A stretch of 64,000 nt of DNA, taken from contig CAVPNL010000006.1 of NCBI GenBank assembly GCA_963706575.1, forward strand, positions 192,001-256,000, read 5' to 3'. Position numbers and translations under genes: made by a program. The DNA is from an uncultured delta proteobacterium. GTDB lineage: Bacteria; Desulfobacterota; Desulfobacteria; Desulfobacterales; JAHEIW01. Positions 49,015 to 55,042 of the stretch are shown piece by piece. A model generated the notes under the pieces. That model had not been told where the DNA came from. It was given only the letters and a program-made list of their open reading frames with translations, and did no database searches. Position 1 is the stretch's first letter, and each line of letters begins with the position of its first letter.

Positions 49015-49761
49015 TTATTTTCCAGCACGGATTAATACCCCTTCTGTAGCTGGTGAGCTGTTGAAACCCGTTTTTTTGACCAGTTCAGCATTCACAAAGC
49101 CGGCCCTTTGAAGCATTGCCAGGAAATCCTTTCCCGGTATAGCCCCGCCCTCTCATTGAGCCCAACTCTTAATTATTTTATCTTTTTCCTCGGGCAGCTC
49201 GCCAATGAGAATTTCGTCTGCCACCATCAGGCGGCCGCCGGGTTTTAAAACGCGGTAGATCTCACCAAAAGCCCTGGCTTTGTCGGGGACAAGGTTTAGG
49301 GCCCCATTTGATGTGACAACGTCAAAGTCTTCGTCTGCAAACGGCAAATTTTCAGCAGATCCTTCCTTAAAGACAACATTTTTTAAATCAGTCTTTGAAA
49401 GATTCTTTTTCGCCCGTTTAAGCATCGCCGGTGTTAAATCGACCCCTACCACTTTTCCCGTTGGCCCTGTCATCATCGCGGAAAAGAGCGTATCGACGCC
49501 GGCGCCACAGCCCACATCCAGTACCTCATCCCCTTTATCGACGGACCCCAATGTGAATGGATTGCCCACCCCGCAATATGAAGCGGCAACTTCCGCGGGT
49601 AACGCCTGCAGGAGTTCAGGATCATATTTTAGAGTTTTAAGTCCCTCATGGCCCGTGGGATAGCGAAACAGGCCATCCGGATTTTCAGCGGCCTTCGAAT
49701 ATGTTTTCCAAATCGTTTTTTGAATCCATTTTTTATCTTTAACCGTAAATTGAGTTTCCAT
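49015..49761 (-). CDS. ArsM-like SAM methyltransferase, probable selenoprotein (TGA 49153..49155)
   Basis: YCGVGNP, LDVGCGAGVD, EIYRVLKPGG. KSWAQ-[TGA]-EGGAIPG...AGF continues 45 codons to TAA, matching the ArsM WxxC..GA motif. Hairpin CCGGGAAA-GGA-TTTCCTGG 15 nt downstream. Confidence 0.88.
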
Positions 49762-49788: not shown

Positions 49789-50052
49789 TTACTGAAGGCC
49801 TGCCCGGATAGCCGCTTCCAGTTTTCTTTTGGAAATGTCCGTCCCTTCGACGACAATTTCATCCCCTACCATTATCGCAGGCGCAACCGGCAGATCAAGC
49901 TCGAAATATTCGTCGGTCATATATTCATCTTTTGGTTTTTCGATCGTTATCATCTCGATGTCGTATTTGGCACCCAGCCTGGGCATCATTTTTTTAAAGT
50001 GCTTTCAGGGCTTCCCATTGGGCAGGTTCATGAAAAATCTGACCTTCAACAT
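49789..50052 (-). CDS. Small thioredoxin-fold probable selenoprotein (NxPxGxxU; TGA 50005..50007)
   Basis: AAGGAGG RBS then MLKVRFFMNLPNGKP-[TGA]-KHFKKMMP..., in frame with ORF 49789..49989 (LPVAPAIMVGDE). Confidence 0.82.
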
Positions 50053-50088: not shown

Positions 50089-51828
50089 TTATTCAGTTTT
50101 CCTAATTTCTGCCATTCGCACTAGAAATTGATCGGCCGGCAAAAAATCAACCAGGCGCAGATCGCGTCGTTCCTTTCCCCAACTGTCCAAAAAGATAACC
50201 GTGGGGACACCTTTAACGTTAAATTGACGCAATAAATCTTCATAGACCGGATTGCCTTTTCGGGTGAGGTCAATCTTTATCATGCTAAAATCTGTTTTAG
50301 CCTGTTTGACGATTTCAGGATTATGAAAAGTGACTTCATCCAGTTCGCGACAGGGAGCACACCAGTCGGCATAAAAATCAAGGATCACCGGCTTTTTCAA
50401 TCTCTGGGCATCCACCAGTAACGGTTCCGAGTAGGGCTGCCAGGCGACACCGGGACCGTGCATCACCCATGAACCAATAAGGGCCGTGGCGATGATCAGT
50501 CCGGTTATGGCTGTACCGGTTCTAAGCCACTCGAATCCCCGAAACTCGGCCCGGCTCCGATCTATCCAGCCCAGGTGTAATGCTGCTGCCAAAGCCACGG
50601 CGGACAGTAAGAACACTTTTACGGTACCGGGTAATAACGGCTGAATAAAATAAGCGGCCATGCCCACCAGAATCCAGCCCAAAAGTTTTTTTACCCACAG
50701 CATCCACTCACCGGAGCGGGGAAGTTTGCGCAGCTGTCCTGAAAACAGGGCCAGGAAAAAAAGAGGCAGACCCAGACCGAGGCTCAATGTAAAGAAGATT
50801 AAAAATCCGATCCAGATGCTTCCGATAGTGGCGACCCAGGTCAGCAGACCCAGGATAAACGGGCCGATGCACGCGGAGGCCACCACGCCTAATGTCATTC
50901 CCATAAACAGGCTGCCAAAGTAGCCGGAATAGGATTTTGACGCGGCCTGTGACAAACTGTATGGGAGTCGCATTTCCCAGAGTCCAAAGAGACTGGTGGC
51001 AAAGAAAATGAGTACGGCGGCCACCAGGACGAGCACGACGGGGTGTTGCAGTAAACTTCCAAGCATCCCGCCGCTCAAGGCCGCAATCACCCCGAGCACC
51101 GAGTTGGTGATCGCGAGTCCTCCGATATAACAGGTCCCGTGGATCAACAATCTTCTCTGGTTTTGACCACTTCTACCGCCGAAATAGGAAACCGTAATCG
51201 GGATTAAAGGGTAAATACACGGTGTCAGGTTCAGGGCGATTCCGCCGGCAAAGATTCCCAGAAGTGTCCATATCATCGCCCAGCCCTCTAAGGGCCGTGA
51301 CTGCTGGGGCGCAAGCGATGTTTCAGAAAGCCCGGCCGGAGAGCTGACAACGGGCAAATTCTTTGCGTGCCACTGCGGATAGCCCATGGGATCGCGAAAG
51401 ATATTTTTATAACCCAGTGTTACGGCCACCCGGGCCGCCGAGTCACTGCGGACTCATGCCAGCCCCGCTCAGTAAAACACGATGAAACGATTTTTGTCCG
51501 GCCCCAGAAATTTCTCAAGGGCGCCTTTATTTCGCCAGCGCGACAACCAGGTCGGCTCCATGGGGAAATTAAGGGCGCCATTGATGTGCCCGGTGCGGTA
51601 TTCCCATTCCTGACGGGTGTCCACCAGGAGTACCGTTTCAGGGTCTTTTTGATAGCGGTCCCATAATGCATCGGTGTCAATAATCCGGTAGCCGCCCTGC
51701 TGGGCCTCGGCCAGCACATCGTTCCAGGTTGCCGCCTTGGGGGTGACCACCCGGTTGGTGTGCCAAAGGTAACCGGCAGTAATGGTTATGGCGACTAAAA
51801 CGAAAACAGTTTTTTTAATTGCACTCAT
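50089..51828 (-). CDS. Rhodanese-DsbD(beta-gamma) fusion with two probable Sec (TGA 51469..51471 and 51454..51456)
   Basis: Rhodanese (VDTRQEWEYRTGHINGA), then IVFY-[TGA]-AGLA-[TGA]-VRSDSAA...LGY...GYPQW, in frame with the DsbD ORF (LTPCIYP, SACIGP, DFYADWCAPC). Confidence 0.85.
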
Positions 51829-51919: not shown

Positions 51920-52597
51920 CTATGCCTCTTTACCTACAGAAATTGGAAACCCCAGGGCTCGCAAGTCCTGGATTCCCTCTTCGAGCCGCACTGCCTGAAA
52001 ACCCCTTGAACGAAGCATCTCCACGGCCTGGATCGAAAGCACGCAGTATGGACCCCGGCAGTATGCCACGATTTCCTGATCGCGAGGCAAATCCAACAGG
52101 CGCAGTTGCAGCTCTTTAAGCGGGATGGAGATGGCCCCGGGGATGTGTCCGGCGTTGTATTCTTCCACCGGGCGGACATCCAGAACCGTGACTGCTCCTT
52201 TCCCAACCAGCTCCAGAAGCGATTTGCGATCAACCGGTTCCATACCCTCTCTTCCCTCCAGAAAGCGACGCTTGATTTGTTCCACCTCCGCCAGTCTGCT
52301 TTCGGCCAGAACCCGCATGGTGAGGAAAAACTCGCAGACCTTTTGATCGGCAAGACGGTAGTGAACAAATAGCCCCTCTTTTTCGGCCTCCACCAGGCGG
52401 GCTGTCCGCAGAACCTGCAGATGCTGGGAGGCATTTGCGACCGTCAAGCCGGATTCTTTGGCCAAAACCTCGACAGTTCGCGGGCCCTGGCACAGCAGAT
52501 CCAACAGCTCCAGTCGTTTCGGACTGGAAACCGCTTTTCCGATTCGTGCAAACTGCTCATAAATTGCATCTTTAAACACACGATTTGGATTTTTCAT
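51920..52597 (-). CDS. ArsR-family regulator fused to rhodanese
   Basis: ANASQHLQVL HTH plus DVRP.EEYNAGHIPGA, YCRGPYC. Confidence 0.93.
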   Translation of the reverse strand: MKNPNRVFKDAIYEQFARIGKAVSSPKRLELLDLLCQGPRTVEVLAKESGLTVANASQHLQVLRTARLVEAEKEGLFVHYRLADQKVCEFFLTMRVLAESRLAEVEQIKRRFLEGREGMEPVDRKSLLELVGKGAVTVLDVRPVEEYNAGHIPGAISIPLKELQLRLLDLPRDQEIVAYCRGPYCVLSIQAVEMLRSRGFQAVRLEEGIQDLRALGFPISVGKEA

Positions 52598-53375: not shown

Positions 53376-53891
53376 TCAACGAATCATATTAAAAGAAATT
53401 TTACCATTCAGTTTATCCACCACCTGGCGGACGTCAGCCAAACATCACCTGCCTTTCGGATTCTTGTTGGCGCAATCGCAAGCACCGGCCTTCTTCTCTG
53501 CTGCGATTTTTTCAATGATCAACGATCGCCCATTTTTGATGAAATCCTGTTCGATATCATTTACGGTATATCCAAAACAGTAACATATTAGATCATCTAA
53601 CTTATAATCTAAATTCTCAGGAGGTTTATCGGAAATATCAGTCGAAGGTGTTTTGTCATTGGTTTTCAGATTCGCAACATACCCGACTTTAAGCAATGTT
53701 TGACAGATTTTCTCTACTGAAACTGTGGATTTGTCATACGATACGATAGCTTTTTTTTCCGGATAACTTGCAAAAGCCTTTTTAACTCCTGGCAGCTCTT
53801 CCAGAGCGCTTACCACTTTGGGCTCTCAGCCCATTCAGGTCATACCCTGTACCTCTAATTCAATCTCATGGGTTCCGTCTGTTGTCTTCAT
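53376..53891 (-). CDS. HMA domain plus Cys-rich (CopZ/BFD-like) domain protein with three probable Sec (TGA 53835, 53826, 53445)
   Basis: LEVQGMT-[TGA]-MG-[TGA]-EPKVVSALEELPGV matches GMTCxxC. ICYCF...CDCANKNPKGR-[TGA]-CLADV matches NPxGxCC. Confidence 0.88.
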
Positions 53892-54078: not shown

Positions 54079-54555
54079 CTAGTGCGGAGAAATCAGACGG
54101 CCAAAGCAGCTTCTGCGATTGCCTTCAAATAGAAAAATCTGCATACCGAAGACGAAATAAATGACATCCCGCACCAGCGTCAATTCGGGAGAGCTGGCAT
54201 ATCCGCTCTGTCCGGTGGAAAAACACCCGCAATCAAATTCATGGCCACGGATCAGATTGATGGCCAACACAGTGACAAAAGCCAGAAGCAGGGCGTTAAT
54301 GATAATGGCCGCCGAGCGTGGATAAAGACCGATGATTAAGGCGAATCCGGCAACGAGTTCCAGAAAGGGGATGACGATAGCAATCAGGTTGATGAACATT
54401 GCCGGAAAAAGATCATATCCGTATACGATTTTGGCAAAATCCGCGGGTGAAATAATTTTATGCAAACTGGCATAAATAAAGGTGATGCCAAGAATCCAGC
54501 GTCCCGCCAGCTCGATCCAGCTGTTGTTTTTTATGAATTGTGCCCGATTATTCAA
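54079..54555 (-). CDS. MauE/DoxX-family redox membrane protein
   Basis: FIYASLHKI, PFLELVAG, RGHEFDCGCF, LVRD. Confidence 0.88.
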   Translation of the reverse strand: MNNRAQFIKNNSWIELAGRWILGITFIYASLHKIISPADFAKIVYGYDLFPAMFINLIAIVIPFLELVAGFALIIGLYPRSAAIIINALLLAFVTVLAINLIRGHEFDCGCFSTGQSGYASSPELTLVRDVIYFVFGMQIFLFEGNRRSCFGRLISPH

Positions 54556-55042
54556 TTGGATACCCTTCGGCTTCCCAGCCCGGAAATCCGTCAATAAAAA
54601 TCCGCACATTGGTGAATCCAAGGTCTGAAAGAAGCTGGGCCAGCTTGTGGCTATCTTCACAAGTTCTGCCGGAACAATAGGTCACAATGGGCTGTTCGGG
54701 TGGATAGCGGTTGAGGAAGGACTCGATCCGCTTTTCAAATTGGCCTACCGGCAGCGATACGGCTCCCGGGATATGGCCGTTTCCGTAATGGTTTTGCGAA
54801 CGGGCGTCTACAAAAAGAACGTCACCTTTATCAAATAGGGTTTTGGCCCGGGCGACGCTGTCAATTTCTGCTGGCTTTCCCTCTGCAATTCCGCCGGGGC
54901 TGGCGGTAATCACGCCTTCGGCGATATCCCACTGTCCCACCAGGGCAATACCCCTTGGCGAAAGCGTGTTAACCGCCAGGGCCAGGGCCAGCGAAACGCC
55001 CACCAGGATGATGATTTCCTTGATTGTTTTGCGAATAACCAT
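54548..55042 (-). CDS. Membrane-anchored rhodanese-domain protein
   Basis: N-terminal TM, VDAR...GHIPGA, TYCSGRTCEDS, GFPGW. Confidence 0.9.
   Translation of the reverse strand: MVIRKTIKEIIILVGVSLALALAVNTLSPRGIALVGQWDIAEGVITASPGGIAEGKPAEIDSVARAKTLFDKGDVLFVDARSQNHYGNGHIPGAVSLPVGQFEKRIESFLNRYPPEQPIVTYCSGRTCEDSHKLAQLLSDLGFTNVRIFIDGFPGWEAEGYPIE

Follow-up and report, generated by a model that had tools for sequence, protein, structure and literature searches.

TsoB in an uncultured member of the Desulfobacterales: a rhodanese–DsbD fusion protein with two predicted selenocysteines, candidate tandem recoding hairpins and a variant Tso gene neighbourhood

The DNA analysed here (hereafter the window) is a stretch of 64,000 nt from an uncultured delta proteobacterium of the Desulfobacterales (assembly GCA_963706575.1, contig CAVPNL010000006.1, positions 192,001 to 256,000), and it carries on its minus strand a gene, tsoB, which encodes a rhodanese/DsbD fusion-like protein of 579 residues and in which two TGA codons are predicted to be read as selenocysteine (Sec, U). 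The only in-frame stops of this frame are the TGA codons 120 and 125; under translation table 11 the frame breaks into an open reading frame (ORF) of 142 residues that ends at the first TGA and one of 446 residues that begins at the GTG at 51429. An earlier note on this DNA, made from the letters alone, had proposed a single 579-residue frame with two TGA codons in the loop of a rhodanese, and the translation, together with a Pfam match that passes through both TGAs, confirms this; the N-terminal anchor and the motifs LTPCIYP, SACIGP and WCAPC that it quoted are likewise all present. The coordinates of tsoB, of its parts and of the neighbouring genes are collected in Table 1.

Four parts can be distinguished along the chain. 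The N-terminal signal anchor is indicated by a hydropathy peak at residues 3–21 and by a helix at residues 3–24 in an AlphaFold2 model, and its pattern (M..KK..L.L.AV.LT.G.LW..NR) is retained among the orthologues. Within the rhodanese domain the match to PF00581 spans positions 4–101 of the 102 in the profile, which means that the domain runs on through both TGAs. Fold searches with Foldseek matched this domain to 6mxv, 3nhv, 2hhg and 3gk5 and also to Sud (1qxn) and GlpE (1gmx), and in HMMER alignments to solved rhodaneses (both domains of 6mxv, 3d1p and 2hhg) a gap of two residues faces A124 and U125, so that TsoB has two more loop residues than those sulfurtransferases, and Sec125 is part of this insertion. 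The membrane domain is matched by PF02683 (DsbD_TM) at residues 186–398 (E 1e-41), contains C204 (51219–51217, in LTPCIYP) and C320 (50871–50869, in SACIGP), and has CcdA (5vkv) as its nearest solved relative by sequence search as well as by fold search. The thioredoxin domain carries C490 (50361–50359) and C493 (50352–50350) in WCAPC, and its best solved relatives are C-terminal domains of DsbD (4ip1, E 4.1e-17; also 2fwe and 1vrs). Positions 120 and 125 (U or C) and all four of these cysteines are invariant in 30 of 30 aligned sequences. The AlphaFold2 model, built from a 30-row alignment, has a mean predicted local distance difference test (pLDDT) score of 69 and a predicted template modelling (pTM) score of 0.50, with pLDDT mostly 74–93 in the rhodanese and 41–67 in the thioredoxin domain.

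Table 1. Position of tsoB, its domains and recoding elements, and the neighbouring genes in the window
Feature	Coordinates	Strand	Description
tsoB	50089..51828	minus	rhodanese/DsbD fusion-like predicted selenoprotein; 579 residues plus stop, TGA read as U
N-terminal hydrophobic signal anchor	51757..51822	minus	about residues 3–24
Rhodanese domain with both Sec codons	51364..51669	minus	residues 54–155; Pfam PF00581, E 4e-13
UGA 1 (Sec120)	51469..51471	minus	catalytic-cysteine position of the rhodanese loop
UGA 2 (Sec125)	51454..51456	minus	inside a 2-residue insertion of the active-site loop
Hairpin 1	51440..51455	minus	candidate Sec insertion sequence (SECIS) for Sec120; GAGUC-CGCAGU-GACUC, 5-bp stem, 6-nt loop
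Hairpin 2	51422..51438	minus	candidate SECIS for Sec125; GCGGCC-CGGGU-GGCCGU, 6-bp stem, CGGGU loop
DsbD beta-like membrane domain	50458..51279	minus	8 helices; about residues 184–457
C-terminal thioredoxin (DsbD gamma-like) domain	50122..50442	minus	WCAPC; Pfam thioredoxin families, residues 463–569
tsoC	49789..50052	minus	87 codons, 36 nt downstream of tsoB; TGA at 50007–50005 (NLPNGKPU)
ArsM-like S-adenosylmethionine (SAM) methyltransferase	49015..49761	minus	248 residues; TGA codon 203 (49155–49153, SWAQ-U-EGGA)
ArsR-family regulator fused to a CRGPYC rhodanese	51920..52597	minus	Pfam HTH_5 and Rhodanese; immediately upstream of tsoB
Heavy-metal-associated (HMA) protein	53445..53891	minus	148 residues; GMT-U-MG-U, TGA at 53837–53835 and 53828–53826
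MauE/DoxX-family membrane protein ORF	54079..54660	minus	starts with GTG; translation may begin further inside the ORF
Cys-type membrane-anchored rhodanese (YCSGRTC)	54548..55042	minus	overlaps the MauE/DoxX ORF by 113 nt

The protein is TsoB, a member of a family that was named in 2025 and is already curated and in print. With the NCBIfam model NF045694 (TsoB) it scores 1007.2 bits, as against a cut-off of 805, over residues 6–575 and profile positions 2–571 of 572, and the same model applied to the genome DNA gives 995 bits with two TGA codons in the match. The marks of the family are all found here: a full-length score, the UxxxxU motif, and rhodanese, DsbD membrane and thioredoxin domains within one chain. 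A table in a 2026 review (PMC13188914) lists TsoB with the UxxxxU motif and two Sec, and gives single-Sec rhodanese selenoproteins as forms 1–4; the passage of that review on Tso (three selenoprotein operon) describes adjacent, unrelated selenoprotein genes and credits Haft & Tolstoy (2025). A literature search on periplasmic fusions of DsbD and rhodanese listed no paper that, judged by title and abstract, concerns such a fusion. The novelty implied by the earlier note therefore falls away, given the curated model and the listing in print, and its account of the protein is best described as a correct rediscovery.

We regard the assignment to TsoB, together with the reading of both UGA codons as Sec, as almost certain on the strength of the comparative evidence. 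Among the 120 best database relatives, two (P0066 and P0077) are Cys-type orthologues, full-length and fused at 578 residues, which share 62–63% identity with the window protein and are themselves over the NF045694 cut-off (929 and 913 bits, respectively); in the loop alignment (FYUAGLAUVRS in the window, FYCTGQTCVRS in P0066, FYCAGPDCVRS in P0077) both U residues stand opposite Cys. A division of the orthologues into separate rhodanese and DsbD genes, which the earlier note had named as the outcome that would count against it, is not what these fused proteins show. The remaining 118 of the 120 are 'DsbD' calls of 393–453 residues covering 68–77% of the query, and these short calls are what gene calling that stops at TGA makes of a Sec gene. 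The paralogous Cys-type rhodanese of the window, which had been put forward as an internal control, does align its C-SGRT-C with U-AGLA-U. In a search of 61 genomes (the window's own and relatives), 18 rows, that of the own genome included, have two TGAs inside the match, down to 59% identity, and the U....U pair was present in all 19 related loci examined. Moreover, in a phylum sample of 401 genomes, 26 had a match over the NF045694 cut-off; every one of the 30 such matches carries two TGAs, and no Cys form occurred in that sample. The constancy of the UGA pair (19/19 loci and 30/30 phylum-sample matches) puts U....U beyond chance. Across 37 aligned loci both UGAs are invariant, and the frame is open and conserved across the UGA junction in all loci compared.

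The genome itself is equipped for Sec insertion, with tRNA-Sec at 75.2 bits, SelA at 604.8, SelB at 376.5 and SelD at 380.3, all over their cut-offs, and with a SelD that itself carries an in-frame TGA. Cys homologues, downstream stem–loops and complete Sec machinery, by which bacterial selenoproteins are usually recognized computationally, are all in place. The own genome (G000) has two selD loci (C5:349796-350719 and C3:438965-439886), of which one is full-length with one TGA and the other consists of two adjacent matches, one of them with one TGA. A pseudogene was considered for tsoB and rejected, since the frame is intact and conserved and true remnants look different. Two such remnants of TsoB were seen: in L039 (G034:C63) the rhodanese part joins the end of the thioredoxin domain (...UVRSDSAAREFVMIKVDL...), which amounts to an internal deletion, and at G416:C14:444866-446519 the gene lies in two overlapping frames.

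Each UGA is followed by a hairpin, and both of the hairpins that the earlier note had quoted are present at the sequences given in Table 1. Hairpin 1 begins 13 nt past UGA 1, and its 5' arm takes in the GA of UGA 2; hairpin 2 begins 15 nt past UGA 2. In the 37 aligned loci, 98.5% of the cells of the two hairpins are paired (97.3% for hairpin 1 and 99.5% for hairpin 2), as against 20.9–62.4% when the 3' partners are slid by 1–3 columns. Compensatory changes occur at pair 66–78 (GC in 31 sequences, AU in 5, CG in 1) and at pair 69–75 (CG in 35, UA in 2), and changes on both sides amount to 8 cells in 2 pairs, all within hairpin 2. The covariation score and the count of doubly changed cells were reached by 0 of 500 shuffles, a test that related sequences are able to pass even where no structure exists. 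The third-position entropy of the codons is 0 at the hairpin 1 stem codons GTC and GAC and 0.3–0.74 in the stems of hairpin 2, rising to 0.8–1.1 in the loop and spacer codons and mostly to 0.9–1.9 in the flanks. We read the two hairpins as tandem SECIS-like elements, one for each UGA, though hairpin 2 might serve both codons. A longer lower stem around hairpin 1 (GGGCUG/CGGCCC) was also considered and dropped: it is 91.7% paired with no both-side changes, is mismatched in 7 of 18 at one pair, and competes with hairpin 2.

The hydrophobic block at residues 184–457 is read from hydropathy as eight transmembrane (TM) helices, in which the loops TM1–2, TM3–4, TM5–6 and TM7–8 hold two to five Lys/Arg each and the alternate loops none or one. 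The topology of the beta domain is established for E. coli DsbD, where both ends of the membrane block are periplasmic, and by the positive-inside rule the distribution of Lys/Arg in TsoB fits the same arrangement. On this arrangement the Lys/Arg-rich loops would be cytoplasmic and the domains on either side of the block, rhodanese and thioredoxin, would both face the periplasm; we infer that the rhodanese is held there by its N-terminal signal anchor and that the thioredoxin domain lies in the same compartment. In the relay that we propose, a cytoplasmic thiol donor would deliver electrons to C204/C320 in the membrane, from which they would pass to C490/C493 of the thioredoxin domain and on to a U120–U125 selenenyl-selenide in the enlarged rhodanese loop. 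Sec120, at the catalytic position, would attack a small anionic chalcogen or metalloid substrate, and Sec125 would resolve the adduct, whereupon the relay would re-reduce the U120/U125 pair. Candidate substrates may be polysulfide or persulfide sulfur, or Se, Te or As species, a guess prompted by the ArsR-type regulators and metal/metalloid genes nearby. The earlier note had arrived at a similar proposal, in which a selenol/diselenide rhodanese in the periplasm would receive reducing power and use it on polysulfide, S0 or Se species; it fits the predicted topology and is plausible. We give the relay through thioredoxin, membrane Cys, CxxC and U–U loop roughly an even chance of being right, and any particular substrate less than that. 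Taken as a whole, a TsoB with two Sec and the proposed relay is, in our judgement, likely to be the best explanation of the locus.

Several points weigh against this explanation. The redox potential of a diselenide is lower than that of a CxxC disulfide, and reduction by a gamma-like domain would be uphill. The AlphaFold2 model is mediocre and lends no support to a contact between the thioredoxin and rhodanese domains. TsoC, the product of the gene that follows tsoB, has no signal peptide by eye, nor has TsoA, encoded beside TsoB in other lineages, and the relay gives neither of them a role. At the level of recoding, hairpin 1 has no covariation (its partners being fixed by first and second codon positions) and has two pairs with mismatches, in 4 and in 1 of the 37 sequences, respectively; in a single-sequence fold of 51400–51480 (81 nt) the minimum free energy of -26.5 kcal/mol (z -0.83) is not below that of shuffles.

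How the two UGA codons are decoded admits of other accounts. One UGA alone might be decoded as Sec, the other being read by a near-cognate tRNA or causing frequent termination, so that the main product would not be the U/U form; the shortness of hairpin 1 (5 bp), its want of covariation and the position of UGA 2 inside its stem would all be in keeping with this. We nevertheless consider it improbable, because both UGAs are invariant in 37/37 loci and both stand opposite Cys in the Cys forms, because the third positions of the stem codons GTC and GAC do not vary at all (entropy 0), unlike those of adjacent loop codons, and because the two hairpins follow their UGAs at similar spacings (13 and 15 nt). 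Gene callers, for their part, annotate two genes, a truncated rhodanese of 119 residues ending at TGA 1 and a DsbD that begins at GTG 51429, and the 118 short 'DsbD' calls among the 120 best relatives follow the same pattern. That there are really two genes is very hard to credit: the match to the rhodanese profile passes both TGAs and runs to the end of the domain, rhodanese and DsbD form one chain in the Cys-type orthologues, every locus keeps the frame open and conserved at the junction, and the GTG in question sits in the loop of hairpin 2.

A further alternative accepts the two-Sec protein and concerns its chemistry. The rhodanese may be a chalcogen carrier, in which sulfane S or Se bound to Sec120 as a selenopersulfide or perselenide would be passed on, and in which the DsbD and thioredoxin parts would only reset or protect the loop or release the atom. 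The fold and the nearest solved relatives are those of sulfurtransferase-type rhodaneses, among them the polysulfide-sulfur transferase Sud (1qxn) and GlpE (1gmx), and the cluster holds two more CxGxxC rhodaneses (the ArsR fusion and the Cys-type rhodanese of Table 1), all of which would suit a carrier. Against it, the active-site loop exceeds that of the aligned sulfurtransferases by two residues, and the strict retention of a second Sec (37/37 loci) suggests a resolving residue, for which a simple carrier has no use. We judge the carrier unlikely, and prefer to see in TsoB a putative two-Sec reductase at the end of an electron relay.

Comparison with known systems helps to place this architecture. 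With E. coli-type DsbD, TsoB shares the eight-helix beta-like domain with one Cys in each half and the gamma-like thioredoxin domain with its CxxC. It differs in that its score with the corresponding model (NF001419) is 259.8, below the cut-off of 330, and in that profile positions 1–158 are unmatched, the match being confined to positions 159–572 on residues 176–575; the immunoglobulin-like alpha domain and its redox Cys pair are absent, and a signal-anchored two-Sec rhodanese stands in their stead, which upholds the earlier claim that a rhodanese occupies the place of the DsbD alpha domain. GlpE, PspE, Sud and the single-Sec rhodanese selenoproteins resemble the TsoB domain in their rhodanese fold and in a catalytic position that opens the loop following the central strand, whereas TsoB has a loop longer by two residues with a second Sec and, in contrast to single-domain rhodaneses, is tethered to a membrane electron conduit of its own. 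The membrane core resembles that of CcdA (5vkv). In ScsB, as in TsoB, the N-terminal periplasmic domain of the DsbD scaffold has been exchanged; the difference from the CcdA/ScsB branches is that the exchanged domain of TsoB is a selenoprotein rhodanese. With canonical TsoB, the window protein has in common the UxxxxU motif, the three-domain architecture and TsoC as the product of the next gene.

The product of that next gene scores 143.6 bits with the TsoC model NF045708 (cut-off 45), contains no Cys, and yields in Pfam a sub-threshold match to Thioredoxin_3 (E 0.078); its motif is NLPNGKPU, compared with the canonical NEPNGKPU (NEPxGxxU as the motif of TsoC). Of 36 other loci, 27 have a TsoC relative no more than 1.5 kb from TsoB, and several of those lacking one reach a contig edge. 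Some canonical loci (L057, L060 and L064) have a second TsoC-like gene (NEPCGLTU/NDPCGLTU) directly after TsoB, with the NEPNGKPU gene beyond it. In another locus (L053:3241-3750, plus strand) an ORF of 169 residues lies between tsoB and tsoC and is by eye of the glycine-cleavage H or lipoyl type (DPYGQGWLFQIK); the 36-nt gap of the window has no room for such a gene.

Upstream of tsoB the window departs from the canonical order tsoR–tsoA–tsoB–tsoC. No match to TsoA (NF045695) was found in the own genome (91.8% complete) or in the 24 genomes of the same family that were searched, with G043 as a positive control (211 bits beside its TsoB), and the motif LULAxC is absent from every frame of the window. 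Of 19 phylum-sample loci, 17 have that motif upstream of TsoB, as against 0 of 18 loci of the window's lineage. TsoA ORFs in L053–L069 measure 126–151 residues in the four loci that allowed their frame to be delimited; by eye they show no signal peptide, and they share the stretch ...LVHL-U-LAEC.GEGVDPT.MC...; their C-terminal stretch gave sub-threshold winged-helix matches in Pfam (E 0.003–0.2) in one of two tested sequences. Where tsoR and tsoA stand in canonical loci, the window's lineage has the DNA-binding ArsR–rhodanese fusion. The fusion protein scores 47.8 bits with the model NF045707 for TsoR, an ArsR/SmtB-type regulator, under the cut-off of 115, whereas five of six regulators tested from canonical loci score 154–170 and one 114. 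Homologues of the ArsR–rhodanese with more than 73% identity adjoin TsoB in the window's lineage.

Around tsoB and tsoC lies an island that comprises the UxxU-bearing HMA protein, the ArsM-like selenoprotein, the Cys-type CxGxxC rhodanese and the MauE/DoxX membrane protein; in all, four genes between 49015 and 53891, tsoB and tsoC among them, hold six predicted Sec codons. With the double-selenoprotein models NF041537 and NF041536 only the methyltransferase part of the ArsM-like protein is matched (380 and 377 bits, below the cut-offs), which makes it a single-domain, single-Sec form. The HMA protein has a Cys-rich, BFD/CopZ_Nterm-like tail; with NF041115 ('UxxU metal-binding (seleno)protein') it scores 61.9, short of the cut-off (95), and under table 11 the called ORF is confined to its last 123 residues. 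A membrane methyltransferase gene is on the same strand as tsoB. Of 36 other loci, 6 have MauE homologues close to TsoB. Elsewhere in the own genome, weak matches to the TsoB model fall on rhodanese-like frames with an in-frame TGA (G000:C5:300414-300990, C12:216025-216309 and C4:552713-552895), and these are possibly additional rhodanese selenoproteins.

The neighbourhood as a whole suggests that the Tso system has been rebuilt in the window's lineage, with TsoR and TsoA gone and the ArsR–rhodanese in their place. On the boldest reading, which we think unlikely, TsoB would be a transmembrane conduit ending in a diselenide; it would reduce a metalloid or chalcogen species in the periplasm and so open a route of methylation or detoxification based on Sec, and the three CxGxxC/UxGxxU rhodaneses would between them sense, carry and reduce one and the same ligand.

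As a discovery, the locus contributes no more than a local variant of the operon, the family itself being in print. Set beside the table of the review, three observations may go beyond what is listed there: the evidence from comparison for a tandem pair of SECIS-like hairpins, the placing of the second Sec in a loop insertion, and the form of the operon that lacks TsoA and TsoR and has an ArsR–rhodanese regulator. Few bacterial proteins have, like TsoB, two selenocysteines in a single active-site loop, and within that table TsoB is the only DsbD-type conduit to end in a selenoprotein domain. It is still split by gene callers; once recognized, it sets the annotation of this locus right and points to three more Sec genes in the vicinity. 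Finally, the two hairpins and the fused Cys forms offer a concrete basis for expression and trapping experiments.

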